Source: Calditrichota bacterium (GTDB taxonomy: Bacteria; Zhuqueibacterota; Zhuqueibacteria; Thermofontimicrobiales; Thermofontimicrobiaceae). Taken from it: 64,000 nucleotides of DNA. A program made the translations under genes and the position numbers. Location of the stretch: the NCBI GenBank assembly GCA_013152715.1, contig JAADFU010000094.1, forward strand, positions 76,657 through 140,656, read 5' to 3'. Positions 939 through 54,277 of the stretch are shown here, one piece after another. The notes beneath the pieces are model-generated. The model had not been told where the DNA came from and did no database searches. It was given only the letters and a program-made list of their open reading frames with translations. How positions within the stretch are numbered: the stretch's first letter is position 1; the number at the start of each line of letters is the position of its first letter.

Positions 939-957
939 AAATAGCTCCTTGCTCCGG

Positions 958-1335: not shown

Positions 1336-1385
1336 TTTGTGCCTCGTGCTTTTAATCCCAAGCGGATTAAAAATTGTTTCTTTAG

Positions 1386-1778: not shown

Positions 1779-2349
1779 TTTCTATGTTGTTATTGATTAG
1801 TGGTCTCCAGTGCTTGTTTCGGAACTGCTTTCTTTCTCTCAATTTTTTACAGCAAAAGCAAAGAATCAGGAAATTTATCATTTGCTAAACAGGATGTTGA
1901 TGAGAGTCCCGCTTTTTTTTTAATGTCAATAGAGCCTTCCAATTGATTGTAACCAATGAATGCACTAATTTCATTGCCAGTGATTGTGCTTTTTCCAGCG
2001 AAAATTCAGGCGGTAGCCGATTCGATCTTACCGTCCTTGTTCTTTTTGCAGGAAAGAACTATCTAACTGCTCGTTGTAATTTTTCTGAAAAATTTTTACA
2101 AGTATTTCATTTTGAAAATTTTGTGCTTGGCGTTTTTCATTTCTAATATCAAATGAAAGCTTGTTTTTATTTTCAAAAAAATTTCGTATAATCAAATGAA
2201 GAAAATTTTCTGAATTGTGGCACAATAACCTCATAATAAACAATCGGATATATTGCTGCCTAAAAAAGAAAACAAGTGCTCGTTTTAGTTTGGGAAGATT
2301 GTCTTCAATCTTTACCTGATTCAATTCTTTCTTGCGCAAATGTTATGCC

Positions 2350-2381
2350 AAAAAAAAACCGAATCCCAATGAGGAATTCGG
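2350..2381 (-). terminator. rho-independent terminator ending the rnf operon
   Basis: On the minus strand, hairpin ccgaattcctcattgggattcgg followed by 9 U, about 65 nt downstream of the rnfA stop. Confidence 0.5.
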
Positions 2382-2447
2382 CTCTGGCAAAGCAAAAATT
2401 AATGAATAGATTAGTCAAAAAAAGTGTGGGAGGACTCTTGTTCTAAT

Positions 2448-3089
2448 TTACAGTTTCAACCCGGAAAAACCCAAAAACGCAATAGACATCAAGCCGGCCA
2501 TTAAAAAAGCAATGGGAACGCCGCGCAGCGCTTTGGGAATGGGCGCTAAATCGAGCCGTTCGCGAATCCCGGCCATCAAGACTAACGCCAATGTAAAACC
2601 GATTCCGGCAGTGAAGCCGTACACGATACTTTCGATGAAGTTGAAATTTTCGTCCAGGTTCAAAAACGCCACGCCCAAAATTGCGCAGTTGGTGGTAATC
2701 AAAGGCAAATAAATTCCCAGCGATTTGTACAGCGTGGGGCTGGCTTTTTGCACGACCATTTCCACAAATTGCACCAGGGATGCGATTACCAGAATGAAGG
2801 CGATTGTTTTCAGGTAGGTTAAATCCGGCGGCTCCTTGGCTGAAAAAATTAAATAGAAAATATTTGCAGTGGTGGGCTTGAGCATGAAAGCGTAGATCAG
2901 CCACGTCACCATCGACGCCAGCGTCATGACGAAAGTCACGGCCATGCCCATGCCGACTGCCGAGTCCATATTTTTGGACACGCCGATGTAAGGGCAGATG
3001 CCAAGGAATCTGTTGAGCACGAAGTTGTTGATGAAAATTGCGGAAATGGTGATGACAAACAAATGATTAAAATCCATTTTATCCTCCAA
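2448..3089 (-). CDS. rnfA: Rnf electron-transport complex subunit A (RnfA/NqrE family)
   Basis: Polytopic membrane protein with [16 protein letters not shown] and MGMAVTFVM motifs typical of RnfA/NqrE; last gene of rnfCDGEA. Confidence 0.9.
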
Positions 3090-3102
3090 AAGAAAGCTTA
3101 TT

Positions 3103-3699
3103 TCAAGCGTTTCGTTTCGCGTCTAACCAGTTAAAAAATCCCAAAAACAAGCCCAAAGTCAGAAAGGCGCCGGGCGGCAGAATGAGCAGCAGCACCGGCT
3201 CGAAGCTGTGCGGCATGAGTGGAATTCCCCAAAGACTTCCATTCCCCAGAATTTCTCTGACAATAGAAATTAATGTCAGGGCAAAGGTAAAGCCCAGTCC
3301 CATTCCCAGTCCGTCAAGGAATGAGTAGAAAACCGGATTTTTGCCGGCGAATGCTTCGGCTCGTCCTAAAATAATACAGTTGACAACAATGAGGGGAACA
3401 AAAATGCCCAGCGATTTATGCAATGCCGGCGCAAAACCAGCCATGAATAAATCGACAATGGTAACAAAGGTGGCAATGACGACGATGTAAATAGGAATGC
3501 GAATTTTCTTGGGCACACCTTTGCGGATGAGGGAAACGATGACGTTCGACATCATCAGCACAAATGTCACGGCAACGCCCATTCCGATGGCGTTCTGCAC
3601 GGAATTGGAGACTGCCAGCGTGGGGCACAATCCCAGCACTAATTTGAAAACCGGATTTTGTTTGTAAAACCCTTTTGTGAATTCTTTTATCATCGACAT
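3103..3699 (-). CDS. rnfE: Rnf complex subunit E (RnfE/NqrD family)
   Basis: [26 protein letters not shown] signature; operon position between rnfG and rnfA. Confidence 0.9.
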
Positions 3700-3717
3700 A
3701 ATTTAATGACCCTCTTG

Positions 3718-4329
3718 CTAACTTACTTGTTCGGTTTGTGTTGTATTCTTTTTTGTCTTGAAACCACCGAGACGTTTCTCTAATTGTTTCAGTCCTTCTT
3801 TGATGGAATTTGTAACGGCGCGCGATGAAATAGTCGCGCCGGTTATTGATTTTATCGGACCGTTGTCTTTGTCCACGGCTAACTCATCAGCGTAACGATT
3901 AAGGAACTGAATTTGAAACCAGGGAGAGCTTTCTCCATATTTGACTTGTTCGATTTTCGTGCCCAGCCCTGGCGTTTCCTGTTGTTCCATTATTTTGATG
4001 CCGATGATTTTGCCTGTTGTGTCCACGCCGACCATGGTTTCGATCACGCTGGAATAGCCGGATTTTTTGGCAATAAAAGCGTAGCCGGCAATTTCCTTTT
4101 TCTCCTGTGAAGGGTAACCGATGTAATAAAGAAGCTCATCGTTTTCCGTCACTTTCTCGATAGCTTTGGGGTCTGCTGTGGGAAGAGCGGCGATTAGCGC
4201 ACGTTCGATTACAAGCCGTTTTTGCTCTTCGATTTTCGGTTTAGTTATTTTATTAACCATGGACAGAGCGGCGCTGGCAAGCACTGTTACCAGCAACAAA
4301 ATTCCGCCTAATTTATAAATTTCCTTCAT
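3718..4329 (-). CDS. rnfG: Rnf complex subunit G (FMN-binding)
   Basis: N-terminal TM anchor plus SITGATISSRAV FMN-attachment motif; operon context. Confidence 0.85.
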   Translation of the reverse strand: MKEIYKLGGILLLVTVLASAALSMVNKITKPKIEEQKRLVIERALIAALPTADPKAIEKVTENDELLYYIGYPSQEKKEIAGYAFIAKKSGYSSVIETMVGVDTTGKIIGIKIMEQQETPGLGTKIEQVKYGESSPWFQIQFLNRYADELAVDKDNGPIKSITGATISSRAVTNSIKEGLKQLEKRLGGFKTKKNTTQTEQVS

Positions 4330-5435
4330 TTTTGCTCCACCTTTCCAAATGTTTTCGGTTTTGTGTATCGATCAAGCAAAGGCACGGTTAAGTTCATTAA
4401 TAAAATGGAGTAAGAGACGCCCTCGGGATAGCCGCCGACGAGACGAATGATGACAGTGATCACACCGCAGCCAAATCCGAACCAGACGCGCCCCTTAGGC
4501 GTCACCGGCGAAGTGACCATGTCCGTCGCCATAAAAAAGGCGCCCAAAATCAGTCCTCCTGACAATACTTGAAACAGCGGATCGCCGCTAAAAAATCCCT
4601 CAGTGCCGGCAAAAATCCACGTCAACAGCGCGACAGTTCCGATGTAGGTCAAAGGAATTCGCAAGCCGATGTAGCGTTTGTAGATCAAATACAGCGCGCC
4701 GATAAGCAGCAAAAATACGGATGTTTCTCCGATACAGCCGCCGACTTTTCCCCAGAAGAGATTTGCGTAAGAGTCCGAGAGCTGTGAAATAGCATTATTT
4801 GCGAGATTCGCTTTTGCTTGCAAAACCGGATTTTCAATTCCGCTTTTGAGGACGTCACGCCACTCGGACAAAATGCCGCGCTGCGTTTTGAAGACATTCA
4901 GCGGCGTGGCAGAGGTAATTGCATCGAGGCCGTAGTTTACAATCGCATGTGGGTTTATTCCGGAAAGGCTTCCGCCTCGCGGCGCGACTTTGAAAATAGT
5001 CATGTGCGATGGCCAGGAAGCAAGCAAAAAAGCGCGACCTAACAAAGCCGGATTCATCGGATTGTAGCCTAATCCGCCAAAGGGGATTTTGCCAATGGCA
5101 ATAGCAAAAGCGGAGCCAATCACAGGAATCCACCACGGCACTTCCGGCGGCACATTGAACGCTAACAAAATTCCGGTGACGATTGCGCTGCCGTCAGCTA
5201 TGGTGATCGGTTTTTTTGTCAATTTTTCAATGAGCGCTTCGGTAATCATTGCCGAGAGAATCGCCAGAACAATGGTCCATGCCGCCTGCGCTCCAAAAAA
5301 ATACACTCCGCCAATTGCGGCCGGCAGCAACGCGATGACAACGCCGAACATAATTTTCTGCACAGAATCCTTATGAGCAATGTGCGGCGAGGCTGAAACT
5401 AGTAATCGATTTTCCATTTGTTTCTTTCCCTGCAA
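4326..5435 (-). CDS. rnfD: Rnf complex subunit D (RnfD/NqrB family)
   Basis: Polytopic membrane protein with SASPHI.H N-terminal motif and TGATP-like FMN site region; overlaps rnfG start. Confidence 0.9.
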   Translation of the reverse strand: MQGKKQMENRLLVSASPHIAHKDSVQKIMFGVVIALLPAAIGGVYFFGAQAAWTIVLAILSAMITEALIEKLTKKPITIADGSAIVTGILLAFNVPPEVPWWIPVIGSAFAIAIGKIPFGGLGYNPMNPALLGRAFLLASWPSHMTIFKVAPRGGSLSGINPHAIVNYGLDAITSATPLNVFKTQRGILSEWRDVLKSGIENPVLQAKANLANNAISQLSDSYANLFWGKVGGCIGETSVFLLLIGALYLIYKRYIGLRIPLTYIGTVALLTWIFAGTEGFFSGDPLFQVLSGGLILGAFFMATDMVTSPVTPKGRVWFGFGCGVITVIIRLVGGYPEGVSYSILLMNLTVPLLDRYTKPKTFGKVEQK

Positions 5436-5526
5436 GTCGTTCAGTTAGTAAAGAATTGACGTCAATTTTTCAACATTTGCTTTGAGCCTATTCCTGATAA
5501 ATTAAAAAATAAAAGAGAGAAAAATT

Positions 5527-6861
5527 TTAAGCCCGCGCTTTGAGCGATTTTGTAATTTCCAATTTAGCGTATTTGAATAAATGGACGTGGCGAATTCGCG
5601 ACGGACAAACAAATGAGCACGATCCGCATTCGATACAGTCCAGCACTCCTAACTTGTGCGCTTCTTCGAAATTGTCGTATTCTATCTGACGCGCCATCTC
5701 ATTGGGCAACAAATTCATCGGACACACATCCACGCAACGGGCGCAGCGAATACAGGGATCCGGATCGCGGAGCGCCGTCTCTTTTTCGGTGAGCGCCAGA
5801 ATTCCGGACGTGCCCTTAATCACAGGCACTTCCAGCGTGTACTGCGCAATTCCCATCATGGGTCCGCCGTTGACGATTTTGATGGTATTTTCTTTCAAAC
5901 CACCGCAGAAATCGATCAAATTCTGAAACGGCGTGCCGATACGGGCGAGCACATTTTTTGGCTCGTTGATTCCCAAACCGGTCACCGTGACCACGCGCTC
6001 GATTAATGGTTTTTTGGAAGAAACCGCATCGAAAATTGCTTTGGCGGTGCCGACATTGTGGACCAGACAGCCCACATCCATCGGCAGACCGCCAGCCGGG
6101 ACTTTGCGGTTAGTAATAGCTTTAATTAATTGTTTTTCAGCGCCTTGCGGGTATTTTACAGGCAGAGAAACGACTTCCGCATCCATTTTCATTTCTTTCA
6201 CTGCCTGACGCATGGCACGGACAGCATCTGGCTTATTGTTTTCGATGGCGATGTAGCCATTTTTACAGCCAAGAATTTTCATAATAATTTTGACGCCTTC
6301 CAAAATGTCGCGCGTTTTTTCCAGCATTAAGCGATGGTCTGCCGTAAGATAGGGTTCGCACTCGGCGCCGTTCAAAATAAAAGTATCAATCGGTTTGTCC
6401 GCCGGCGGTGATAATTTGACATGGCTGGGAAAAGTTGCGCCGCCCATGCCTGCCAGACCGGCGTTCAAAATGCGTTTTTTCATTTCGTCCGCGTCCAGTT
6501 CCGCGTAATTTTCGTCAAAAGCAATGTCCGGAGACCATTCGTCTTTGCCGTCATTTTCGATGATGATGGACAAAACTTTTCCGCCGACAGGATGAGGACG
6601 TGGATCGATTGCTTTTACCGTTCCGGAAACGGTTGCGTGCGACGGAACGGAAACAAAACCCTTGGCCTGACAAACGACATCGCCAATTTTTACTTCGTCG
6701 CCTACAGCGACTACTGGCTCCGCCGGCGCACCGATGTGCTGCTGGACCGGAATAATAACCAATTCAGGAGCAGGCATCACTTCAATCGCTTTGTCCTCAG
6801 CGAGTTCCTTGTATTCGTGTGGATGAACACCGCCTTTGAAAGTAAGCTTCTTTAACCTCAT
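5527..6861 (-). CDS. rnfC: Rnf complex subunit C (NADH-binding, two 4Fe-4S clusters)
   Basis: CIRCARCVDVCP and CIECGSCSFVCP ferredoxin motifs, GGATFP nucleotide-binding region; first gene of the operon. Confidence 0.9.
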   Translation of the reverse strand: MRLKKLTFKGGVHPHEYKELAEDKAIEVMPAPELVIIPVQQHIGAPAEPVVAVGDEVKIGDVVCQAKGFVSVPSHATVSGTVKAIDPRPHPVGGKVLSIIIENDGKDEWSPDIAFDENYAELDADEMKKRILNAGLAGMGGATFPSHVKLSPPADKPIDTFILNGAECEPYLTADHRLMLEKTRDILEGVKIIMKILGCKNGYIAIENNKPDAVRAMRQAVKEMKMDAEVVSLPVKYPQGAEKQLIKAITNRKVPAGGLPMDVGCLVHNVGTAKAIFDAVSSKKPLIERVVTVTGLGINEPKNVLARIGTPFQNLIDFCGGLKENTIKIVNGGPMMGIAQYTLEVPVIKGTSGILALTEKETALRDPDPCIRCARCVDVCPMNLLPNEMARQIEYDNFEEAHKLGVLDCIECGSCSFVCPSRIRHVHLFKYAKLEITKSLKARA

Positions 6862-6916
6862 AACACCTCGATCTTGTTTTTGTCAATTAACCATCTGTAA
6901 ATTGATCTCTTGCTTC

Positions 6917-7363
6917 TTAATTTAATCCTTGCAGCTCTTCCAGAAATTCTTCTTTATCTTGAAATTTTCGGTAAACAGACGCAAAACGGACATAAGCCAC
7001 ATGGTCGATTTTTTTCAGTCGTTCCATGACCATCAGCCCGATTTCTTGGGAAGAAATTTCATCGACGGATTTGTCTTTCAATGAATTTTCGATTTGTTCA
7101 ACAAGGTCGTCGATTTTTTTAATGGAAATCGGTCGTTTGGCGCAGGCGACAAGAATGCCCTGCCTTAGTTTCTCCCGATTGAACGCTTCCCGACGATGGT
7201 CCGCTTTGATGACCAGAATCGGCGTCTGTTCGATGTATTCTTTCGTTGTAAATCTTTTGCGGCAAGCCAGACACTCACGTCGGCGGCGAATAATTTTGCC
7301 GTCGTTCTTGGCTCGGGAATCAATTACACGGCTATTTTCGTGACCACAAAACGGACAACGCAT
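6917..7363 (-). CDS. nrdR: transcriptional repressor NrdR (zinc ribbon + ATP-cone)
   Basis: MRCPFCGH...RRRECLACRKRFTTKE zinc ribbon followed by ATP-cone; 148 aa. Confidence 0.9.
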   Translation of the reverse strand: MRCPFCGHENSRVIDSRAKNDGKIIRRRRECLACRKRFTTKEYIEQTPILVIKADHRREAFNREKLRQGILVACAKRPISIKKIDDLVEQIENSLKDKSVDEISSQEIGLMVMERLKKIDHVAYVRFASVYRKFQDKEEFLEELQGLN

Positions 7364-7380
7364 AGGAATCCCTCATAAAA

Positions 7381-8673
7381 TTATTCAAATTTTGGGTAGA
7401 GGGGAAATTTTTGGCACAGATCGAATACCCGCGATTTTATCTTTTCGTGAACGGCTTCACTGTCAATGTTCATTAAAACCTCGTTGATCATCTCAGCGAT
7501 TTCAACCATTTCCGGCTCTTTCATTCCGCGCGTGGTCAAAGCCGGCGTTCCGATTCGAATGCCGCTGGTAACAAAAGGACTCTGGTCGTCGAAAGGAACC
7601 ATGTTTTTATTCACGGTAATTCCCGCCTGTTCTAACGCCTTTTCTGATTGTTTTCCGGTGAGTCCTTTGTTGCGCAGATCAATGAGCATCAAGTGTGTAT
7701 CTGTGCCGTTGGATACAAGATTGTAATCCATTTCCATTAATTTATTTGCCAGCGTTTTGGCGTTTTTGATGACTTGTTTCGAATATTCTTTAAACTCAGG
7801 CTGTAACGCTTCCTTGAATGCCACAGCTTTGGCCGCGATGACGTGCATCAGCGGGCCGCCCTGAAAACCGGGGAAAACGTTGGAATCGACAATCTGTCCG
7901 ATTTTTCTGAGTTTTCCTTTGGGAGTCTTTATTCCCATGTCATTTTCTTCATTTTCCCCGACCAGAATCATGCCGCCGCGCGGTCCGCGCAACGTTTTGT
8001 GCGTTGTCGTCGTCACCAGATGACAGTGGGGAAGCGGGCTTTTAATTAAACCGGCAGCAATCAACCCCGCCGGATGTGCAATGTCGGCGATCAGTTTCGC
8101 ACCGACACGGTCGGCAATTTGGCGAAAAGCGGCGTAGTCAATTTCGCGCGGATAGGCGCTGGCGCCGGTGATAATTAGGCGTGGTTTTTCTTTCAACGCC
8201 AGGTCTTCCACCTGATTCATGTCGATGTAACCGCTCTTTTTGTCCACGCCGTAGGAGATGATGCGAAACAATTTGCCGGAAAAATTAACCGGGCTGCCGT
8301 GCGTCAAATGGCCGCCGTGATCCAGATTCATGCCCATCACGGTGTCGCCGGGCTTGGCGAAAGTAAAATAGGCGGCAATGTTCGCTTGCGAACCGGAATG
8401 GGGCTGGACATTGGCGTATTCTGCCTGGAAAAGTTGTTTGGCCCTTTCGCGCGCTAATTCTTCCGCTACATCGACATAAACGCAGCCGCCGTAGTAACGC
8501 TTTCCCGGATAGCCTTCGGCATATTTATTTGTCATTACCTGACCCATCGCTTCCATCACCGCTGCACTGACAAAATTTTCAGAAGCGATAAGTTCCAGTT
8601 TATCGTTCTGGCGCGAAACTTCATTTTGAATCGCTTGAAAAATTTCAGGGTCTGTTTCTTTTAACATAGACAT
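7381..8673 (-). CDS. glyA: serine hydroxymethyltransferase
   Basis: Full-length SHMT with PLP-lysine region [14 protein letters not shown]; 430 aa. Confidence 0.95.
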
Positions 8674-8795
8674 TTGTTTTCCTCAACAAATTGAAAAGTC
8701 AACTGATTACTCTTAATTTAAAGAGCGTGCTCCAAAACCTGTATTTCCAAAAATGTCAAATAATAGCAATTTATAATTCCAATATAGTCAATTAT

Positions 8796-9236
8796 TTACA
8801 TGCCAGTTAACTGATGAATTTTATTGATTCGTCTCAGATGCCTGCCGCCGTCAAAAGGGGTTTTTAGCCAGACATCGACAATTTTGAGAGCTTCAAAATG
8901 GTCGATGAGTTTTCCCGGCAATGCGAGAACATTTGCATTGTTGTGGCGTCTGCTTAATTCTGCCATTTTCTCAGTCAAACACAATGCCGCTCGGATGCCG
9001 CGTACTTTATTGGCGATGATGGACATGCCAATTCCCGACGCGCACATCAGAATTCCCAGATCAGCTCTTTGCTGGGCGACGGCGCGTGCAGCAAGAATCC
9101 CATAGTCCGGATAATCAACGGATTCGGATTTGAACGTACCAAAATCTTCTACTGCCAAGCCAATTTTTTCCAGATGCTCTTTTATCTTGTTTTTAAGATC
9201 AAGACCTGCATGGTCGGATGCAATCGCTATCGTCAT
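8796..9236 (-). CDS. rpiB: ribose-5-phosphate isomerase B (RpiB/LacAB family)
   Basis: MTIAIASDHAG...LMCASGIGMSIIANK motifs; the track ORF extends to 9296 but the start is probably the ATG at 9236 (146 aa); rpiB-glyA synteny. Confidence 0.85.
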   Translation of the reverse strand: MTIAIASDHAGLDLKNKIKEHLEKIGLAVEDFGTFKSESVDYPDYGILAARAVAQQRADLGILMCASGIGMSIIANKVRGIRAALCLTEKMAELSRRHNNANVLALPGKLIDHFEALKIVDVWLKTPFDGGRHLRRINKIHQLTGM

Positions 9237-9410
9237 TGGGAAAAGACCTTTTATGCCAAAAATTGCAAAATATGAAACGGGAAAACCGTTGCTCAACGAG
9301 GGATTTGATCAGGTTGAGCAAAAAACTCGTAGAATCAATTTGTCAAGCAATAACGAGCCTCAAAGGCGATCTGACTCTGAGGCTCGCTTTAAATCGTCAA
9401 ACTGCAGTTG

Positions 9411-10691
9411 TTAATAAATCCAGCTATAACACTTTTTCTTGGGCTTTGTCTGGCCCTTGTGGAAAAAGCGGTCTTCTTTTTTGGGAATGAAATCTTTGAG
9501 GTAATTGAGACGCGCTTGCGCCGTGTCTTTAAATTGCAAATCAGTTGTTGCTTTTTTGTACTCTTTGTAAGCTAATTCGTAAACAAGCTTGTCGTCAAAG
9601 TCAGCCACATCTTTGCCGGTTTGGCGCATACATTCATCGACGGCCGCTTCGAAAATCTCCGCGCGTACAATGTAAGCCAATCCGTACTGGTTGTCAATTT
9701 TCAACGCCTTGTTTGCGTATTTGCGCGCAGTGGAGAATTGTTTGAGTTCTTTGTAGCAGGTCGCAATGTCCGTGTAAATTTTTTTGTTATCCGGCTCCAT
9801 TTTTACGACTTCTTTGTAAATATTGATGGCGCGCTTGTAGTTGCCGACATTCTGCAATGCGGAAGCCAAATAAGTCATCGCCTGTACGTCATTCGGCTTC
9901 AAACTGAGCATCGCTCCAAAATTCGAGATGGCTTTCTCGTACTCGGCGACATTAAAATATTCTTTCCCCAGATTAAACAGGTTTTCTGTATTCTGCGGAT
10001 CTAACTTTTTTACTGATTCCATTTGCTGAATGGCAGCGTCAGCATTTCCGGTGGATTTGTAGAGCTTGCTCAGCGTTTGCTGGGCGTCATTGTCATTCGG
10101 ATCGAGCTTAACGACTTTCTCATAGGCGCGAATAGCGTCGTCAGTCTGATCGTTTTTAATGTAAAGCAGGGCTAATCGCTTCCAATCTGCGGGCCTCTTT
10201 TCATCAATAGCCAAGGCTTTTTCGTACTGGTCAATCGCCTCTTCGATGCGCCCGAGATTGTCGTAGATGTAGCCCAGGCTGCGATGAAGGTGCGCAATGT
10301 TGGGGAATCTTTGCACTCCCATTTCCAATGCAATTTGCGCTGAGTCCGCTTTGTTCAACTTGATATATGAGTCGGAAAGATAGGTGAATAAGTTTTTGTA
10401 TTTATTGATGGTGTCCAGCTTAGCGACTTTCCAGAAATAGGGAATAGCGTTGCTGTACATCTTGTTTTTATAATTTTCATAGCCCAGACTGAAATTAAGC
10501 GCCATTTTTCGTTCGTAAACTTGCGTTAAAGAATCCTGAATTGCTTTTTGGCGTTCAGGAGAAATTTGCGGCCCTTGCTGTTGGGCTGTCGGCACACAGC
10601 CAAAATTGAAAATTCCAGCGATTGCAAGCAAAGACAGAACCGCGACGATCAGTAATCCGGTTAGAGTTTTGCGTCCTACAAAATCTTTCAT
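9411..10691 (-). CDS. TPR-repeat protein with N-terminal signal/anchor
   Basis: At least 8 tandem TPR units (ALxxxP/AxxxxG periodicity); start refined to the ATG at 10691, preceded by GAGAGGTG (MKDFVGRKTLTGLLIVAVL...). Confidence 0.8.
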   Translation of the reverse strand: MKDFVGRKTLTGLLIVAVLSLLAIAGIFNFGCVPTAQQQGPQISPERQKAIQDSLTQVYERKMALNFSLGYENYKNKMYSNAIPYFWKVAKLDTINKYKNLFTYLSDSYIKLNKADSAQIALEMGVQRFPNIAHLHRSLGYIYDNLGRIEEAIDQYEKALAIDEKRPADWKRLALLYIKNDQTDDAIRAYEKVVKLDPNDNDAQQTLSKLYKSTGNADAAIQQMESVKKLDPQNTENLFNLGKEYFNVAEYEKAISNFGAMLSLKPNDVQAMTYLASALQNVGNYKRAINIYKEVVKMEPDNKKIYTDIATCYKELKQFSTARKYANKALKIDNQYGLAYIVRAEIFEAAVDECMRQTGKDVADFDDKLVYELAYKEYKKATTDLQFKDTAQARLNYLKDFIPKKEDRFFHKGQTKPKKKCYSWIY

Positions 10692-10872
10692 TATGACACC
10701 TCTCAAGAATGTTCGATCTTTTCCAACGTTCAAATTTTTATTAGTGTTATTTAAACAATTGAATTTAAAAATTTTTTTAAAAGATGCAAGAGAAAAGTTA
10801 CAAAATTTTATATTTTCAAAAAATAGTTTTTTTAGAATCGGCAAAATGGGAGCGCCGGAAAACAGCGAAGCG

Positions 10873-12123
10873 CTATTCCGCATTGTTATTTCTGCGAACA
10901 AACCATTTTTCGCCGGCAATCACGCTGATATACACCTTAAAAATCTGTTCTTTTACCGTATTGGTAGTCAATTCGCCGCGCCGGCCGTACTGCAGCGCTA
11001 AATCGACGCGACCCTTGCCGTTATAATAAGGAAATCCGAGTCCGAAAGAAACGCCGTATTCGTTGACAGTTTCGCCGTTTTCGTCTGTGTAATTGAGTTG
11101 CTGCAAAAAATACCCGGCGCGATAGGTCATCTTTTGGTGATATTTTGCCAACATATTAGTCGATGGCAGCATTTCCACGCCGGCGCTGATGCGGAAACGG
11201 TCTTGCAGTTCGCCTGCGACAATGCCGGATCCGTCAAATTTGCTCCACGGATCAGACAGGTAACTGGTCACAAACCGATATTTGTTGCGATACGTGTAGG
11301 ACGTGCCAATTGCCCACATTTCCGGCATGGTCATCTTTTGCTCTTCCGACACATAATCCGCGAGCTTGTTCGGAAACGAGCCTTTTATTGTTCCGAATTG
11401 CGTCTCATCGCGAAACGTCAGGTTGTGCCGCGGAATAAAAAATGCGCCCAAATACAGGGAAGAAATCGGATTGACGTTTGCGCCGAAGGTAAAAGAAGAG
11501 CCCCAGACTTTGCGCGAGATAGCGTCTGAAGTGTCCCAGAACAGATCGGACACATAATCCACACGCCACTTTTTTGTCATTTTCCCGAAATAATAATTGA
11601 AATAAACTCCCAAAGAAACGTTTTTGATCGGCGACAAACCAAAGCCGGCGTGGATTTTATTCAAACCGCCTTCTCCCTCGACTATTTTTGTGTAATGGTA
11701 ATCATCGATAGCGCCGGACACATTGAAAGAGTAGTCAAATTGTGAAAAGGGCGTCAGTCCTGCCGCTACTACAAATCTGTTTGTTTTCAACGGGAACGCG
11801 AGCGATACGCCATTGAAATTGCTGTATTTGGAAAAGCCGCTTCCGGCGTTAGATTTTGACCAAAACGACTGATGGACAAAATCGCCGCTCAATCGAGAAA
11901 GCGTGATGTTCACTAATGTCGCCGGGTTCAGACTATTGATTTGAAAACCGTCGGGCAAGGCGATGTTGGCGCCGCCCAGACCGATTGCCTGAGCGCTGGT
12001 GTAATCGATGCGCTCACCGAATCCGCGGTTGGAAAAAAACGATTGCGCCGTCGCCGGCGAACTGATAGCGATGAAAATTATTCCGATAATGAGAAAAAAT
12101 ATCGTTTTTCGTTTCATTGTCAA
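10873..12123 (-). CDS. FadL/OMPP1-like outer-membrane beta-barrel protein (paralogue 1)
   Basis: Signal peptide, then SAQAIGLGGANIA...NPATL N-terminal signature as in FadL/TodX, beta-rich throughout, C-terminal aromatic-rich strands. Confidence 0.55.
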   Translation of the reverse strand: MTMKRKTIFFLIIGIIFIAISSPATAQSFFSNRGFGERIDYTSAQAIGLGGANIALPDGFQINSLNPATLVNITLSRLSGDFVHQSFWSKSNAGSGFSKYSNFNGVSLAFPLKTNRFVVAAGLTPFSQFDYSFNVSGAIDDYHYTKIVEGEGGLNKIHAGFGLSPIKNVSLGVYFNYYFGKMTKKWRVDYVSDLFWDTSDAISRKVWGSSFTFGANVNPISSLYLGAFFIPRHNLTFRDETQFGTIKGSFPNKLADYVSEEQKMTMPEMWAIGTSYTYRNKYRFVTSYLSDPWSKFDGSGIVAGELQDRFRISAGVEMLPSTNMLAKYHQKMTYRAGYFLQQLNYTDENGETVNEYGVSFGLGFPYYNGKGRVDLALQYGRRGELTTNTVKEQIFKVYISVIAGEKWFVRRNNNAE

Positions 12124-12152
12124 ACTCCGTCTAACTTAAAAGTGGTGCGTCC

Positions 12153-13364
12153 TTAAAATTCATGATTTGCCGGCGTCGTGTAATAGAGATAAATTTTGGG
12201 CTGAAGCGCCGAATCCGCATTGACCGAATAAAATGCGATACGCGCCAGGGTTGTGCCTTCGCTGAATGCCTGCAATTGAAAGCCGTAATTTTCATACTGT
12301 TGCGATATCCACGCCTGTACGGTCGGCGTGATGTCGAACGTGAGCACACTGTCCGCCACTGTTGGGGAGTACGATGCGCTTTGCGGCGTTTCCCACAGCG
12401 AGGCGTCGCCCCAGGGCGAAGTCATGCGATAAATGAGCGCGTTATTTGCGCCTTCAGCATTACGAATGGAATGCGCTGCGTTTGAGGTCAGTTCCAGGAT
12501 AGCGCGATTGATGTGGTAAGTCGTGTCAAATTCAGACAGGTCAAAATCCAGGTAGCTGCGAAACGCCACGCCTCTGCCCATATACAAAAAGTTCGCGTCC
12601 AAAGCGAGGTTTTCCGGTGGATCGAGAAAGATGAATTGATCTTTTGTCGTGTAATAAGTCAATGTGTCTTGCTTATCACCTGTGGAATCTGTGAAATTGT
12701 AAATCAAAGTCATTCTCGGCATGTAAGAAGCTTGCAACGATTCATAGGCGTAAAACACCGCCATGTATTCGGCGCTTTCCGTTTCCAGCCAAAATCCATG
12801 CTGCGCGCCGCTGGAGTCGGTTTTCAGCCATTGATTCACGAGCGTTGTGTCCAACGCAAAACTGATGCCGTTCAACGAGTCGGAATTAATCGTTTGCGTG
12901 GCCAATAGAAAATTGTTATCTGGCAGCGGCGGGTTTTCAGGACCGATGTCTGTGGTGTCCGCTAAATAGATGTTCACAGTCGCCTGCCGGGGTGTGTTCC
13001 AGTAAGTGGTGTCTCCCGGCGCCAGCCGATCCTGAATTTGGAGTTTCAACTCGGCGGAAATCACGTTGATCGTGTCGGGCAAATTGCTGAACTGTAAAAA
13101 AATGCCGCTGTGGTATTGCTCGTACGTTCCCAGCAGCAGATCTGTGCTTTGCGAAGTATCGATTCTTTTGGCTTCGTAAGCACCGCTTTCCGGCGTCGCT
13201 AACAGCGTTTTGTCGGCGATTTCGCCTTCTTGATTGCCGATAATGCGTTGATAACCGTCAGGAAGCGGTTTGTTTTTTTCGCAGCTAGCGACAAGGAGCC
13301 CCAATAACCCAATGAGTAAAATAAAACATCGCGATTGGTTCATCAAATTCCTCTTTGTTTTCAT
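12153..13364 (-). CDS. lipoprotein with two tandem ~190-aa repeats, hypothetical
   Basis: Start refined to MKTKRNLMNQSRCFILLIGLLGLLVASC (lipobox LVASC); two internally similar halves (LKLQIQ.../LELTSN...); immediately upstream of and co-directional with the FadL-like gene. Confidence 0.6.
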   Translation of the reverse strand: MKTKRNLMNQSRCFILLIGLLGLLVASCEKNKPLPDGYQRIIGNQEGEIADKTLLATPESGAYEAKRIDTSQSTDLLLGTYEQYHSGIFLQFSNLPDTINVISAELKLQIQDRLAPGDTTYWNTPRQATVNIYLADTTDIGPENPPLPDNNFLLATQTINSDSLNGISFALDTTLVNQWLKTDSSGAQHGFWLETESAEYMAVFYAYESLQASYMPRMTLIYNFTDSTGDKQDTLTYYTTKDQFIFLDPPENLALDANFLYMGRGVAFRSYLDFDLSEFDTTYHINRAILELTSNAAHSIRNAEGANNALIYRMTSPWGDASLWETPQSASYSPTVADSVLTFDITPTVQAWISQQYENYGFQLQAFSEGTTLARIAFYSVNADSALQPKIYLYYTTPANHEF

Positions 13365-13378
13365 GTCAAAACATCCCT

Positions 13379-14653
13379 TTATCGTTGAACCGAATAATTT
13401 TTTTCCCAGATTACTCTTCCGGATTTTATAACCTGATTCACGTGCGAAACGCCGAAATGATACGGCAAATAGCGGTAATTGGGAATTTCCCACAACGCAA
13501 AATCAGCCTGCGCGCCCGCTTCAATTTTCCCTAATTTTTCTCTGTCAATTGCCTTCGCCGCTGTTGCTGTGGTTGCTGCCCACAACTCTTTTGCGCTCAT
13601 CTTCATGTAAATGGAGGCAATGGTCATCATCAGCGGCAAAGATTGCGTCATGCAACTACCGGGATTGAAATCCGTGGCAATGGCTACTAGCGCGCCAGCG
13701 TCGAGCATTTTTCTCGCCGGCGCGTAGCGATTCAATCCCAGAAAAAACACGGCGCCTGGCAGCAAAACGGGCACGGTATTGCTATTCTTCAGCAGTCCAA
13801 TGACCTCGTCGCTGACATAATCGAGGTGGTCCGCAGAAATCGCATTTAATCGCGCCGCCAGTGCAGCGCCACCGCTGGAACTGAGTTGATCGGCATGAAT
13901 CTTCAATTTCAGCCCGGCATCGAGCGCCGCCGATAAAATTTTCTCTGTTTCTCTTAAATTAAAGACGTGTTCTTCGCAAAAAATGTCGCAAAATTCCGCC
14001 AGGTTTTCTTCGACGACGCGGGGAATCATTTCTTCGATGATCAACTGAATATATTTTTCCCGCTGATTGCGGTATTCATCGGGAATCTCATGGGCGCCCA
14101 AAAAAGTCGGAATCAAATCCAGCGGGTGGATGTCATTCAATTTTTTAATCGCCTGAAGCGATTTGATTTCATCTTCCAGCGACAGACCGTAACCACTTTT
14201 CGCCTCGATGGTTGTGGTGCCGCATTCCACGAATTGATCCAAATAGGGAAGGGCGTGTTCCACAAGTTCGTCTGTGGACGCTTTTCTCAATTGCCGTACC
14301 GAATAGCGAATGCCGCCCCCGGCTTTGGCGATTTCAGCGTAAGTTTTTCCCTGATTGCGCTGTTCGAATTCATGTTCGCGTGTGCCAAAAAACACCGGAT
14401 GCGTGTGCGCGTCAACGAGACCGGGCGACACGACAAATTCCCTGGCATCAATAACATGAGTTTCCGGCGAAAGTGTAATTTCAGCCAAAACCTCTTTTGT
14501 CGAGCCGAACGCCGCTATTTCGCCAGCGACACACGCCACGGCGCCGTCAGGAATAATTTTGAATTTGCTTTCATCAGTCGGCTTGTCAGCAGGACAGATG
14601 AGTTCCCGGGCGCTTTTTATCAAAAGATCGGGTTTAATTGTTTTTTCCGCCAT
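13379..14653 (-). CDS. hutI: imidazolonepropionase (amidohydrolase superfamily)
   Basis: VDAHTHPVFFGTREHEF...GGGIRYSV and downstream metal-binding His/Asp pattern characteristic of HutI; 424 aa. Confidence 0.85.
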   Translation of the reverse strand: MAEKTIKPDLLIKSARELICPADKPTDESKFKIIPDGAVACVAGEIAAFGSTKEVLAEITLSPETHVIDAREFVVSPGLVDAHTHPVFFGTREHEFEQRNQGKTYAEIAKAGGGIRYSVRQLRKASTDELVEHALPYLDQFVECGTTTIEAKSGYGLSLEDEIKSLQAIKKLNDIHPLDLIPTFLGAHEIPDEYRNQREKYIQLIIEEMIPRVVEENLAEFCDIFCEEHVFNLRETEKILSAALDAGLKLKIHADQLSSSGGAALAARLNAISADHLDYVSDEVIGLLKNSNTVPVLLPGAVFFLGLNRYAPARKMLDAGALVAIATDFNPGSCMTQSLPLMMTIASIYMKMSAKELWAATTATAAKAIDREKLGKIEAGAQADFALWEIPNYRYLPYHFGVSHVNQVIKSGRVIWEKNYSVQR

Positions 14654-15148
14654 GAGTGGGTTACATTCTTATTTGAAAAAGCCACGCCAATATAATGAAA
14701 ATTTCAGTGAAATGCCAATAAAAAAATGTGTTTTTCTCAAACAAAACTTTAACTCGCCACTGAGAAGTTTGTTTCATTAGTAAAATGATTTTGCAAACGG
14801 GAAAACAGCGGCTGATAAAACAATGCTCGTCAACTTTTCATATTTTATATTGACTTTTTGATTTAATTTTGTTATCTTAAATTTCTTGAACATTTACAGA
14901 AAGTTAGCAAACGGGGGCGTGCAAAAGGCGGATTATCAGAGCTTATTTTAGAGTAACGACGTCGGAATTGTCTGGCAGATTTTGAGAAAATTGTCAACCA
15001 AAGCCGACGGACGAATTATTTTCATTATTCGGGCGGCATAAAAAAATTGCGCTAATTGCCATTAGCAAAAAAATAATTTGGAAATCCAAAGCCGGGTCGA
15101 ATGCGAAACTCGATTGTAATCGATGAACGGTTCTTAAGGAGGATAACC

Positions 15149-15439
15149 GTGACTAAAGCCGACATCGTCGATATTATTGCCGAGGGAACGGGTTTAACAA
15201 AATTGGAGACGGCTGCTGTGGTTGATGGAGTGATTGCCACGATAAGCTATGCCCTAAAAAAAGGCGAGCCCGTGGATTTGCGTGGTTTCGGTCGCTTTCA
15301 CACTGTGCTGCGTGCGCCGCGCAAGGGAAGAAATCCCAAGACCGGCGAGGAAGTTGACATTCCGTCCCGTCGTATGCCAGTATTCCGCGTCTCCAAACAG
15401 TTGCGTGATTTTGTGAATGCGCCTGACGATGAGTTGTAA
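15149..15439 (+). CDS. hup: DNA-binding protein HU
   Basis: GFGRFHTVLRAPRKGRNPKTGEEVDIPSRRMPVF HU/IHF arm motif; start refined to the GTG at 15149 preceded by AAGGAGG. Confidence 0.85.
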   Translation: MTKADIVDIIAEGTGLTKLETAAVVDGVIATISYALKKGEPVDLRGFGRFHTVLRAPRKGRNPKTGEEVDIPSRRMPVFRVSKQLRDFVNAPDDEL

Positions 15440-15473
15440 AAATTTTAGTTGCCTTGAAAAATAACAGAATTGC

Positions 15474-16238
15474 ATGAATTTAGTTAAACGGCTGAAACAA
15501 TTTGGCAAGACGGCGTCTGACGATCGTGGTGCCTATCAGAATTATCAAAATAGAATCGGTGAATATTATTTAACCCATTTTGTACGAAAATTTTCCACGG
15601 GTAAAAAAGTATTGGACATTGGCTGCGCCGAGGGCGGCGTGTTGGTGCCGTTTCAGCGGGCTGGTTTTCAATGCGCCGGTCTGGAATACAGCGAGCATCG
15701 GGTGCGTTTTGCTCGTGAGCATAGCCCGTCGGACATTCGGTTTTTTCACGGGAATATCGAAGAATTCCATCCGGACGAAAAATTTGATGTGATTTTGATG
15801 CTCGACGTCATTGAGCATCTGCAGCGCAAGCGGCAGGCGCTGGAAAACCTGCAAGCCATGCTGCAGCCGCACGGTTCTCTGATCATTGCATTCCCGCCGT
15901 TTAAATCGGCGTTTGGCGGACACCAGCAGGTGATGAGTTCGATTTTACAGTTCATCCCGTTTCTGCATTTGCTGCCTGAAAAAATTTATCGCTGGTTATT
16001 GGAACACGTGGAGCGCAAAAACGTTGAATCACATTTCCGTAACTACCAGACTGGTCTGACGATTGCCGAGTTCGAAAAATTAGCCCCAAAAGCCGGCTTT
16101 TGCATCATCGAACGCACTTTCCACATTGTTCGCCCGCGGCAAGCGTTTCGTTTTGGCATCAAAATGCGGGAAAATCGCTGCCCTATTTGCCGGGAATTTT
16201 TGAGTTCGGGAGCGATTTATGTGCTTGGTTTAGCCTGA
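15474..16238 (+). CDS. class I SAM-dependent methyltransferase
   Basis: VLDIGCAEGG (motif I), LDVIEHL (motif II-like) and a Rossmann layout. Confidence 0.75.
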   Translation: MNLVKRLKQFGKTASDDRGAYQNYQNRIGEYYLTHFVRKFSTGKKVLDIGCAEGGVLVPFQRAGFQCAGLEYSEHRVRFAREHSPSDIRFFHGNIEEFHPDEKFDVILMLDVIEHLQRKRQALENLQAMLQPHGSLIIAFPPFKSAFGGHQQVMSSILQFIPFLHLLPEKIYRWLLEHVERKNVESHFRNYQTGLTIAEFEKLAPKAGFCIIERTFHIVRPRQAFRFGIKMRENRCPICREFLSSGAIYVLGLA

Positions 16239-20516: not shown

Positions 20517-21392
20517 ATGATTTTTGGCGTCAGCGGCAATACCACGAAAGAACTTGTCAAAAGTGTGATACCTCAATTATTGCGCTGGTTTGCTGATCGA
20601 CGGATAAAATTTATTCTGGATCAGGAATTAGCCAATTTTCTTCAATTGAACGGAGCCGTCGAAACCGGTCAGTTATCCGAGTTTTGTCGGAGTTGCGACG
20701 TCGTTTTGTCCTTTGGCGGCGACGGCACCATTTTGTCAACGGCGAGAACTGTGGGGAAAAGCGCAACGCCAATCCTGGGCGTTAATTTGGGAGGGCTCGG
20801 TTTTTTGACTGAGGTCGGCGTGGACGAGCTCTATCCCACGCTGGAAAATATCATTCACGGTGAGATGTCGATCATTGACAGAAAATTGTTAAAAGCGGCG
20901 GTTGTTCGGGGGCGTCATCGGGAAAAATATTACGCGCTCAACGACGTGGTTGTGGATCGCGGCGGATTCAGCCGCGTGATTCGCCTGGACGTTTACATTG
21001 ATGATTCTTATCTGAATTCTTATCTCGGCGACGGCGTGATAGTGGCGACGCCAACCGGGTCCACGGCATACTCGATGTCGGCAAGCGGCCCTATTTTGTT
21101 TCCCAATGTGAATTGCACGATCATCAATCCCATTTGTCCGCATACGCTGAGCGTGAGACCTGTAGTCATCCATGATCGCAGTGTCGTGAAAATTATTCCT
21201 GATTTGCGGGAAAGCATCATCACCATGAGCGTGGACGGACAAATCAGCCAGCAATTCCCCAAAGGCGATCATGTGGAGATTATTCTGAAAAAAGCGGAAT
21301 TCAGTATCCGCTGCATTCAAAAGGAGAGCAAAAATTTTAATGAGCTTTTGCGGAAAAAGTTGAATTGGGGCATTGACAAGCGGCATGATTGA
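20517..21392 (+). CDS. nadK: NAD+ kinase
   Basis: GGDGT, NLGGLGFLTE and TPTGSTAYSMSASGP motifs. Confidence 0.9.
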   Translation: MIFGVSGNTTKELVKSVIPQLLRWFADRRIKFILDQELANFLQLNGAVETGQLSEFCRSCDVVLSFGGDGTILSTARTVGKSATPILGVNLGGLGFLTEVGVDELYPTLENIIHGEMSIIDRKLLKAAVVRGRHREKYYALNDVVVDRGGFSRVIRLDVYIDDSYLNSYLGDGVIVATPTGSTAYSMSASGPILFPNVNCTIINPICPHTLSVRPVVIHDRSVVKIIPDLRESIITMSVDGQISQQFPKGDHVEIILKKAEFSIRCIQKESKNFNELLRKKLNWGIDKRHD

Positions 21393-21584
21393 TGGGGGGA
21401 TTTGGCTTTTGGCCTCTCGCCTTTGGCTTTTCGCTTTTGACTTTTAGGCATTTTCACTGATAAAAAGTTCGCCAGATGCTCCGAAGTCGCATTTCCGCCA
21501 GTTGGCGGGTGATGCGTTTAATCAGCGTCCTATTTTGGCAAAGATCACAAATGAGAAATTGGAAAAATATTCGGATTTGGGCAC

Positions 21585-49250: not shown

Positions 49251-49799
49251 ATGAAAATCAAAAAAACGACTATTTTATTACTCATTGTGATGTTGTTACT
49301 GGCAATCAACACGAACGCTGTGCTGGCTCAGTACAAAACTTACAGCGGCGATGATGAAGACGTCACTACAGTTCAAAATAAATCGAAAGAGGGGAAAATA
49401 ACAAAAAAATCTATTGGCAGATTTTATGTCATCGAGGCCAGCCGCTGGCCCAAGATTCAATTCTTTGGCGTTTACAGCGCCATGATAGTATGGATTTCCT
49501 TCATTCTGGGACTCACAATTTTCTTAATGGCACGCTACGCCGGCGCCAGAGAAAGCAAATTTAAAATCTGGCTTTCAGTTTTCACTGCTGTGTTTATCGG
49601 CACTTTTAGCCGGTCGCTGAATATTTTGATTCGCGATGGTCTTTTTTGGTTGTTTAACCTGATTTTCAGCCAGGTGACTGCTTCTTCTATTGCTGATTTC
49701 CTTAGCTATGTTCTCTGGCTGTTATTTACTGCCGGCGTTGCAGTGCATCTTTATGAAATATTTACCGTGACCGCGAAAGAAGTTTTTCAGAATAGATAG
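49251..49799 (+). CDS. hypothetical membrane protein
   Basis: Start refined to the ATG at 49251 (MKIKKTTILLLIVMLLLA signal/anchor); three further hydrophobic helices. Confidence 0.5.
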   Translation: MKIKKTTILLLIVMLLLAINTNAVLAQYKTYSGDDEDVTTVQNKSKEGKITKKSIGRFYVIEASRWPKIQFFGVYSAMIVWISFILGLTIFLMARYAGARESKFKIWLSVFTAVFIGTFSRSLNILIRDGLFWLFNLIFSQVTASSIADFLSYVLWLLFTAGVAVHLYEIFTVTAKEVFQNR

Positions 49800-49824
49800 C
49801 CCCGGAGTCATTTTCATGCGTGAA

Positions 49825-50058
49825 GTAGCTATTTTGTAGTTTCGAGTTTCGGGTTTGTAGTTTCGAGAATCAATTTTTAAAAGAATGTTTTCGGGAACTA
49901 CGGATATAAATTAACTAATTTAAGTTTAATTTCAAAATAACTGAACTATATTGTATTATTTTGCACTAATACGTAATTTTATTTAAATAATCGCACTTCC
50001 CTCCAACAGCTCGTAGCTCGAAACGCAAAACTCGAAACTCGAAACTCTTGTAGCTATT
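49825..50058. repeat. ~230-bp element: two imperfect ~40-bp inverted arms built from AGTTTCG heptamers flanking a 140-bp AT-rich core
   Basis: Left arm gtagctattttgtagtttcgagtttcgggtttgtagtttcgag (49825-49867); right arm ctcgtagctcgaaacgcaaaactcgaaactcgaaactcttgtagctatt (50010-50058), which is its reverse complement with about 30/36 matches; lies between convergent genes. Confidence 0.6.
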
Positions 50059-50080
50059 AATGCTACTCTTTTCGGGCGAA

Positions 50081-50215
50081 TTATTTTCGTTCAATCTTGT
50101 CGGCGATACGTTCAACAGCTCTAACCAATCTGAAAGCAAGAGTCAGAACAAAAATGACGACACCCAGCCAGATGAAGAAAATCACAAAACCAAAGTACGA
50201 CATGAAATTAATCAT
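50081..50215 (-). CDS. 44-aa hydrophobic single-TM peptide (unannotated small ORF)
   Basis: GGGAGAAG RBS then ATG; MINFMSYFGFVIFFIWLGVVIFVLTLAFRLVRAVERIADKIERK*; verified codon by codon on the minus strand. Confidence 0.4.
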   Translation of the reverse strand: MINFMSYFGFVIFFIWLGVVIFVLTLAFRLVRAVERIADKIERK

Positions 50216-53306: not shown

Positions 53307-53453
53307 TGGCGCCTCTCGAAGTCAATGACTTTCTTTTTAGAAAAGTAATCATTCTCAAACAAAAAATCAAGAAATTAGTGAATTTTTTGATTGACTTTAA
53401 TTATTTAATTTTTAAATTTATAGTTCATAAAATTGACAATACGAGGGATGAAA

Positions 53454-54131
53454 ATGTTTTTCCGCCAATCAAACATCAGAACACAAATCATATTTTTATT
53501 AATTATTCTTGCCGTTGTCATTGTTCTTATTATTGCCTCCAGGACTGGCATTTTCAAAATGAGCGTGCCTTTGCGTTTCATGCCGCATTTTGAGGGAAAA
53601 GAAACTATCGTCGGCAACGTCTATTACAACCGAATCTATTTGTTCGGCATTTCCCGGCCGAGTACGCGCTGGCGCATTGCTATGGAAAGAAATATCAAAC
53701 AAGCGCCTGAATTTGGATTCCACACGGAAACATTGGATAAAGCGCATTGGGTGGCGGAACTGCTCCGTTATTCCGGGGATGAAATTTGGGGAGAGGTACT
53801 CGTTGCAGCGCTGCCGTCGGATACATCGAAAACACCGGTCTGGTGGGCGCAGAAATTTTTGGGCGAGATTACGGCTTTGTACTCTCCGCTCGATTCTCTG
53901 GTCATAACGCAGAATGTTACCGCGCGCGGCACTGGCGTTTTTCAGAGCGCCTATTTTATGGTGGAATTACCCGAGCGAAAAAATATTACCTATCCGGCGT
54001 TGGTGGCTTTTTTCCGTGCCCGAGGAGATGTCGCATTGGCGGTTATCTGTCGGGCGAAATTTGAAACGTACGATCTGGTCAAAGCTGATTTTGAAAAAAT
54101 TTTGGCGAGTTTTGAATGGTTTCAGGAGTAA
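53454..54131 (+). CDS. hypothetical signal-anchored protein
   Basis: Start refined to the ATG at 53454 (GAGGG RBS; MFFRQSNIRTQIIFLLIILAVVIVLII); divergent from the aminopropyltransferase-like gene. Confidence 0.5.
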   Translation: MFFRQSNIRTQIIFLLIILAVVIVLIIASRTGIFKMSVPLRFMPHFEGKETIVGNVYYNRIYLFGISRPSTRWRIAMERNIKQAPEFGFHTETLDKAHWVAELLRYSGDEIWGEVLVAALPSDTSKTPVWWAQKFLGEITALYSPLDSLVITQNVTARGTGVFQSAYFMVELPERKNITYPALVAFFRARGDVALAVICRAKFETYDLVKADFEKILASFEWFQE

Positions 54132-54277
54132 GGCAGTTTCGAGTTTTTCCTTGGGAAAAAACCGCCCTTTCTCATCAAAATTAAATGCGAACGCACGAAA
54201 TCCTTTATACCAATCATTAGAATTTAGTTTGTTGCAGACCGGAAATGATGCGGCGTTATATTTAAATCAGGCGAAAA

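Follow-up and report, generated by a model that had tools for sequence, protein, structure and literature searches.

The gap between two convergent genes in the window analyzed here (the whole 64-kb stretch of DNA, from a Calditrichota bacterium) holds a real, statistically solid and lineage-specific hairpin of heptamers that carries no gene. With considerable confidence we place it in the class of inverted heptamer arrays, a type of hairpin that occurs in many bacterial phyla and in which the 5' arm reads (AGTNNNN)n, here AGTTTCG, and the 3' arm reads (NNNNACT)n, here CGAAACT. In other genomes such a hairpin commonly encloses a gene for a PF05635 four-helix-bundle protein, as in the 23S rRNA intervening sequences that carry an open reading frame (ORF). 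We somewhat favor the view that the element is a gene-less ('solo') hairpin of this intervening-sequence-like kind that, where two convergent transcripts share their 3' end, probably undergoes processing as double-stranded RNA. The identity of the element is well supported and its function is what we infer; that it truly takes part in RNA processing or in forming 3' ends here is possible, with the balance leaning against it. The anatomy given in a preliminary description of this DNA has largely stood, and the three identities proposed there (a MITE-like relic, a protein-binding array, and an antisense or small RNA locus) have not stood as they were stated.

Anatomy, rarity and genomic setting of the element

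The 5' arm (49824..49867, plus strand) consists of six in-register heptamers (AGTAGCT, ATTTTGT, AGTTTCG, AGTTTCG, GGTTTGT and AGTTTCG) followed by AG, and the 3' arm (50012..50046, plus strand) of five (CGTAGCT, CGAAACG, CAAAACT, CGAAACT and CGAAACT) that are the reverse complement of units in the 5' arm. Tandem Repeats Finder recovered both arms as period-7 arrays, with 4.3 copies of AGTTTCG at 49838-49867 and 4.4 copies of CTCGAAA at 50017-50047, which bears out the tandem gtttcg-type heptamers first read in each of them. The best ungapped pair of arms returned by an inverted-repeat search (49838-49867 with 50017-50046, 149 nt between them) is 30 nt long and 87% complementary, and a longer, 35-nt pairing (49833-49867 with 50010-50044) reaches 77%. 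The arms are thus reverse complements, as the preliminary description had it, and its count of 30 identities in 36 was slightly generous. The predicted stem has approximately 20 + 8 bp and a 3-nt internal mismatch. The 144-nt loop (49868..50011), long for the class of heptamer hairpins, contains no ORF and has a GC content of 25.5% against approximately 45% for the window; the AT content of more than 75% once claimed for this spacer is borderline, the measured value being 74.5%, and the spacer is indeed AT-rich. A 9-bp direct repeat, GTAGCTATT, lies at either end of the element (left copy 49825..49833 and right copy 50050..50058, both plus strand), and within each copy is the palindrome TAGCTA (49826-49831 and 50051-50056) that had been noticed near each arm. 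The outermost 4-5 nt of the two ends of the element differ.

Several of these features are those by which the heptameric LSSR class is recognized. Both arms contain at least three head-to-tail 7-nt units, a second and complementary array lies near the first and converges with it in the order AGT-type then ACT-type, and the site is intergenic between neighboring genes that both have homologues. The stem of approximately 28 bp of heptamers, drawn from terminal inverted repeats, is additionally that of the 23S rRNA intervening-sequence cassette. In two respects the element departs from that cassette: its loop has no PF05635 ORF, and it lies between protein-coding neighbors and not in a 23S rRNA helix.

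The element stands out in the window on every structural measure that was applied. It is the sole inverted repeat of at least 24 nt with arms no more than 400 nt apart in the whole 64 kb, and it holds the only near-perfect period-7 array of the window, where shuffled sequences give 0.1. The folding check proposed with the preliminary description came out in favor of a structure, as the 281-nt gap beat its shuffles in RNA folding on both strands (z = -5.3 on the plus strand and -4.9 on the minus strand); DNA folding gave z = -4.9, and 0 of 200 shuffles folded as well as the gap. The copy-number check, which covered the 64-kb window, gave no sign of repetition there: arms and spacer are single-copy, only a 13-nt match at 54135 was found for them, and no second AGTTTCG array was found in the window. 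At 54135-54160, AGTTTCGAGTTTT begins 4 nt past the stop of ORF 53433-54131 and runs into a small hairpin (GTTTTTCC / GGAAAAAAC), and this may be a minimal or nascent element of the heptamer-hairpin kind. Another period-7 array, at 21401-21446, lies 9 nt past the stop of ORF 20517-21392 and has 6.4 TTTGGCT-like copies with 76% matches; it has neither an inverted partner nor the AGT/ACT core.

A terminator scan found a small terminator-like hairpin at 50050..50076 (plus strand), in which GTAGC and GCTAC enclose ATTAATG and are followed by TCTTTTCGGG with its T-run. A T-run is absent after either arm of the main hairpin. Because of its 144-nt loop and this lack of a T-run, the main hairpin is not an intrinsic terminator, and the earlier judgment that it is too long and too open for a simple one was sound.

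Searches of the wider sequence for RNA genes were negative. At the gathering score no Rfam family, rRNA included, matched anywhere in the window, and a permissive Rfam scan of the region (E <= 10) gave only implausible weak matches, such as plant microRNAs. The window contains no tRNA or tmRNA gene, and an RNase III signature motif was not found in it, although a 64-kb sample of the genome says little on this point. Within positions 1-15500 of the window, long ORFs lie on the minus strand to approximately 14.6 kb and are then mostly on the plus strand, and the cumulative GC skew is lowest near 8-14 kb; this change could be a replication-related switch or a simple divergent operon boundary.

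As first described, the element fills the gap of 281 bp between the convergent stops at 49799 (plus strand) and 50081 (minus strand). The upstream gene, GXO74_07775 (49251..49799, plus strand), encodes a 182-aa membrane protein and is the last gene of a conserved left synteny block. The facing gene (50081..50215, minus strand) encodes a conserved small membrane protein of 44 aa, and it is missing from the public annotation, whose locus tags pass directly from GXO74_07775 to GXO74_07780. Its product is 56% identical over 34 aa to that of a 44-aa gene in a relative (L127, 3081-3215), and on the strength of this sequence comparison we take the minus-strand ORF to be a real gene. In the relative, two paralogues of the 195-aa family directly follow the 44-aa gene, and the arrangement is operon-like, with 14 nt between that gene and a 193-aa member of the family.

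Both flanks of the element have counterparts in other genomes. The left block (metallophosphatase, MeaB, HAD hydrolase, a 114-aa gene and the 182-aa gene) also occurs in a KSB1 relative and a second, more distant one, and in both it continues into RelA_SpoT and then a V-type ATPase operon, with no heptamers in the gap past the corresponding 181-aa gene. The right block (the 195-aa gene, a 762-aa spermine-synthase-like gene, a 232-aa gene and an AP_endonuc_2 gene) is kept in the KSB1 relative on a separate contig, again with no heptamers in the sequence past the 190-aa gene; two independent assemblies both stop 140-175 nt past that gene. Window positions 49800-50080 were compared with L001 6547-6777, L004 2354-2555 and L125 6574-6715, and the element was absent from either flank in relatives with 50-67% amino-acid identity, two related lineages being sampled. 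Since the blocks lie apart in the KSB1 relative and the relatives have no heptamers next to either, the element marks an exact breakpoint of synteny and is specific to its lineage. A 24-nt anchor taken from the 182-aa gene had no match among metagenome contigs.

Inverted heptamer arrays in other genomes and around PF05635 genes

A scan of one genome per species with an 18-nt pattern, GTTTCGAGTTTCGRGTTT, yielded at least 120 loci. The matches listed come from Acidobacteriota (many of them Pyrinomonadaceae), Planctomycetota, Bacteroidota, Verrucomicrobiota, Chloroflexota, Desulfobacterota and others, and the layout that recurs among these loci is a (GTTTCGR)n array, a loop and a (YCGAAAC)n array. 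In unit, arm order, arm length and placement after a stop codon, the element of the window is the same as this heptamer-hairpin family. With exact cores, the matches listed include 26 convergent and 3 divergent cases, and with a loose definition of the unit there are 62 convergent arm pairs among them against 12 divergent ones. The arms of the matches listed mostly have four units, their median loop is 44 nt, and 13 of their loops are 140 nt or longer; neither the sequence nor the length of the loop is related between family members. No heptamer hairpin among 18 family loci matched a family in Rfam.

Tandem repetition as such is not what sets these loci apart. In viral contigs, three permuted control heptamers were found at 12, 11 and 35 loci as compared with 28 for the target, and the notion that GTTTCGA has a special status as a tandem repeat was therefore dropped. 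An inverted partner accompanied none of the 58 control arrays in those contigs. Because permuted heptamers are found in tandem at similar numbers and are never paired, we regard the inverted, ordered pairing as the specific feature. In the fetched loci, period 7 was far commoner than periods 5, 6, 8 and 9.

Most arrays are intergenic, and among the matches listed they are flanked by 42 co-directional, 11 convergent and 4 divergent gene pairs. Placement relative to stop and start codons, scored on the coding strand of the neighboring gene, follows the order of the arms. Among the matches listed, a GTTTCG array lies within 40 nt past a stop codon in 30 of 117 cases, and a CGAAAC array lies within 40 nt ahead of a start codon in 33 of 117; the two converse placements are rarer, at 6 and 14. 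Two Pyrinomonadaceae species keep an array at one orthologous locus. No neighboring gene family recurs among the at least 120 loci listed, and for this reason a gene-specific cis-regulator was dropped as a candidate. For hairpins between co-directional genes the sense strand folded better in 19 cases and the antisense strand in 16 (p = 0.35). An RNA structure selected on the sense strand was accordingly set aside, and selection at the RNA level is not demonstrated by folding energies that have no sense-strand preference.

Some individual loci deserve mention. On a contig of Ca. Desulfobia pelagia (L091, 370-7876), a minus-strand operon of multihaem cytochromes has a heptamer hairpin in nearly every intercistronic gap, and the 3' arms end 5-12 nt ahead of the next start codon, sometimes without a separate Shine-Dalgarno sequence. 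In a member of the Blastocatellia (L112, 2872-3182), the 311-nt loop of a GTTTCGR hairpin is full of REP-like palindromes beginning with GTAG, which suggests that hairpin loops accept secondary insertions. Integron attC sites have RYYYAAC first and GTTRRRY second and are without tandem units; an attC site was dropped as a candidate, the arm order of the element being the opposite.

The link to PF05635 emerged from the same loci. One hairpin in the cytochrome operon has an entire PF05635 gene ('23S rRNA intervening sequence protein', Avd-like) as its 407-nt loop. Among the repeat-selected loci, a search with a small HMM turned up six PF05635-like ORFs; five of them adjoin heptamer arrays whose units differ by locus, and PF05635 genes lie within heptamer hairpins at L091 6027-6498, L106 2859-3386, L122 2010-2474 and L061 2809-3230. 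We also assembled a separate sample of 80 PF05635 metagenome loci (L214-L293), picked by protein pattern alone. A period-7 array occurs within 160 nt upstream of the gene in 45 of the 80 and within 160 nt downstream in 45, with 29 loci having arrays on both sides; these loci are the relatives closest to the seeds from the repeat-selected loci, and the 56% association may not hold throughout a family that numbers at least 7,958 proteins at E <= 1e-10. Control periods of 5, 6, 8 and 9 around the same 80 genes gave 0-2. The windows flanking the genes take 107 of the 134 period-7 arrays in these loci, a 21-fold excess in density.

The arrays around PF05635 genes have the arm order of the element. 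At the two-sided loci the arms are complementary at 12 or more of 14 positions in 27 of 29 cases. Upstream units are of the AGT type in 34 of 54 instances and of the ACT type in 2, and downstream units are ACT in 36 of 53 and AGT in 2, so that the enclosing order is (AGTNNNN)n, PF05635 gene, (NNNNACT)n, with units that vary between loci. AGTTTCG arms themselves flank a PF05635 gene at four loci (L214, L215, L216 and L249), and GTAGCTA arms at two more (L279 and L264), GTAGCTA being the unit behind the TAGCTA anchor of the window. Since no PF05635 remnant was found in a six-frame translation of the loop, and there is no PF05635 gene in the whole 64-kb window, what links the element to the gene-carrying form is shared arm units and architecture only. 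A paper generalizing the link between PF05635 and heptamers was not found in open-access text, where S23p and heptamers were met together only in a paper on Coxiella; open-access text also gave nothing relevant on the repeat sequence itself.

Alternative explanations

The main rival to a solo intervening-sequence-like hairpin is a neutral simple-sequence repeat, which we consider unlikely but well worth weighing. Under this explanation, heptamer slippage, together with template switching at TCGA, itself a palindrome (GTTTCGAAAC is palindromic over 10 bp), gave the inverted array in a spacer between convergent genes, and the element would act, if at all, as a generic bidirectional terminator region does. 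Many units occur commonly as tandem heptamers, period 7 dominates the fetched loci and the permuted controls are also present in viral contigs, all of which would be expected of such a repeat. The unpaired second array at 21401-21446 in the window, the absence of the element from relatives, the lack of a sense-strand folding bias in hairpins of the class, and the canonical-looking small hairpin with its T-run at 50050-50076 point the same way. Mrazek (2007), as cited in PMC4679880, likewise put the heptamer excess down to polymerase slippage. Slippage of this sort does not readily explain an arm order that is fixed among the matches listed (26:3 and 62:12), when control heptamers had an inverted partner in 0 of 58 cases, nor arrays that lie tight against stops and starts, nor the array that two Pyrinomonadaceae species keep at an orthologous locus. 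A 21-fold association with PF05635 genes speaks for selection or some specific process, and not for drift.

A relic of a MITE or foldback transposon, with heptamer terminal inverted repeats, an AT-rich interior and GTAGCTATT as a 9-bp target-site duplication, is much less probable than a neutral repeat. The direct repeat does lie exactly at both ends, the site is a synteny breakpoint with the element absent from relatives, and the interior has 25% GC in a window of 45%. However, neither the arms nor the interior have another copy in the 64 kb, the outermost 4-5 nt of the ends are mismatched and the loops of the family are unrelated in sequence and length. On the target-site duplication that had been proposed as a check, the 9-bp repeat lies at both ends, but six of its nine bases are the palindrome TAGCTA, and GTAGCTA is itself a heptamer unit of the family. 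Related hairpins that carry a gene have no such duplication, the mean longest shared flank being 3.97 nt against 3.83 nt in shuffled sequence. Of the identities first suggested, a relic of something mobile nevertheless comes nearest, as the element looks like a gene-less version of the heptamer hairpin that wraps PF05635 genes.

An array of protein-binding sites in DNA is a decidedly improbable reading. Inverted heptamer sites would here surround an AT-rich unwinding or promoter region, as in an iteron-type origin, a centromere or an operator, and the layout of repeat, AT-rich core and inverted repeat has that form. The TCGAGTT register also resembles the TCGAGNN heptamers bound by the SARP regulators of Streptomyces. 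Contiguous 7-bp units nonetheless fall on different faces of the helix, whereas SARP sites are spaced by 11 bp. Heptameric direct repeats for SARP-LAL regulators are the topic of PMC5930380. We saw no sign of a DNA-binding array, and between two gene ends the gap offers no promoter or gene start that such an array could control. The gap has fewer promoter-like matches than the shuffle mean, the cumulative GC skew rises steadily through the region of the element, and no neighboring gene family recurs among the at least 120 loci listed.

Least probable of all is a small RNA or antisense locus, such as a type I antitoxin for the 44-aa hydrophobic peptide: a small hydrophobic ORF does adjoin a structured gap that has an anti-Shine-Dalgarno-like run (CUUCCCUCC) in its loop and a sigma-70-like match at 49931-49959 (plus strand) followed by the hairpin and T-run at 50050-50076, but this single promoter-like match is within chance (1 against a shuffle mean of 2.5), no Rfam family is matched even at E <= 10, the gap sequence is not kept in relatives, the 44-aa gene of the relative L127 is operon-like with the 195-aa family and so unlike a toxin cassette, and the locus does not present the stand-alone toxin with an overlapping antisense RNA gene that marks type I systems.

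Known systems, proposed mechanism and meaning

REP/BIME sequences and bidirectional intrinsic terminators are, like the element, imperfect palindromes in gaps after genes, and are expected to protect 3' ends and limit read-through. REPs are short, of fixed sequence, present in high copy and tied to a RAYT transposase, none of which applies to the main hairpin. Intrinsic terminators have a short GC-rich stem, a loop of 3-8 nt and a U-tract, a form that only the small hairpin at 50050-50076 (plus strand) fits.

Cyanobacterial STRR repeats have the units CCCCAGT and CAACAGT, and a (C)AGT/ACT(G) core is common to the element and several units of the TAACTGA, TTTTGAA and STRR type. In Beggiatoaceae, MacGregor described TAACTGA repeats just ahead of start codons (PMC4679880), and a preprint on Nostoc reports TTTTGAA heptamers near start codons with an effect on expression (bioRxiv 10.1101/2022.06.06.494920). 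In the survey of Mrazek (2007), again as cited in PMC4679880, most genomes had heptamers as their most abundant long simple repeats. The TAACTGA, TTTTGAA and STRR repeats are all intergenic tandem heptamers like those of the element, often a few bases from start codons. They are mostly single direct arrays upstream of genes, in contrast to the paired, hairpin-forming array found here between gene ends.

Two published systems come closer to the paired form. In Xanthomonas, Rehm et al. (2015) found 70-75 convergent inverted pairs of the heptameric repeat GGGAATC per genome (PMC4692102), and these share with the element intergenic tandem 7-nt units, a complementary convergent partner and the potential to form a cruciform or stem-loop. 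The unit in Xanthomonas is G-rich and can form a quadruplex, which AGTTTCG cannot; there are approximately 180 arrays per Xanthomonas genome against one in 64 kb here, and the phylum differs. PF05635 is not mentioned in the excerpted text of that paper (PMC4692102). Warrier et al. described a 23S rRNA intervening sequence of Coxiella burnetii that carries an S23p (PF05635) ORF and has a 28-bp terminal stem with tandem heptamers, the number of units varying between strains, and RNase III cuts it inside the stem (PMC4990558). The element resembles it in its terminal inverted repeats and in a stem of approximately 28 bp with tandem heptamers. The Coxiella sequence differs in that it lies in helix 45 of the 23S rRNA, contains the S23p/PF05635 ORF and has the unit GACAGAT, whereas the element lies between protein-coding genes and has an ORF-less loop of 144 nt and the unit AGTTTCG.

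If the element is a solo hairpin of this kind, transcripts of the 182-aa and the 44-aa gene would both enter it, and each would contain a G/U-rich arm 36-40 nt past its stop codon followed by the complementary A/C-rich arm. The arms would pair into a stem of approximately 20 + 8 bp that could serve as a substrate for an RNase III-type enzyme and as a barrier to 3' exonucleases, by which both 3' ends would be defined and stabilized. Replication slippage of the 7-nt unit is the probable source of the arrays and of their changes. We speculate that upon transcription the G/U-rich arm, made first, would hide the C-rich arm from Rho, and that the fixed order of the arms could be due to this.

At the level of the family, we put forward only tentatively, as an idea that is rather unlikely in its entirety, that hairpins of AGTNNNN heptamers are one cross-phylum intergenic family, the full form having a PF05635 (Avd-like) gene and the solo form being a gene-less derivative or a landing site, and that 23S rRNA intervening sequences, cyanobacterial STRR, the TAACTGA repeats of Beggiatoaceae and the Xanthomonas pairs share an origin and processing based on RNase III. 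The heptamer arms might in turn be a target of the PF05635 protein.

Taken alone, a hairpin that is lineage-specific and lies where two genes end is a modest result. Tandem heptamers and convergent heptamer pairs were already known as a kind, to which it adds one member. What is new is that PF05635 genes, in the loci sampled, are usually wrapped by inverted heptamer arrays of fixed arm order, and that such arrays are also found without a gene, beside stops and starts, in many phyla. In practice, gene callers and assemblers should expect heptamer hairpins in intercistronic gaps. The link between PF05635 and the heptamers joins three puzzles, namely the abundance of heptamer repeats, the large family of small PF05635 proteins and the origin of rRNA intervening sequences. 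The wider value of the element lies in this family-level tie to PF05635 genes and rRNA intervening sequences, which is directly testable.
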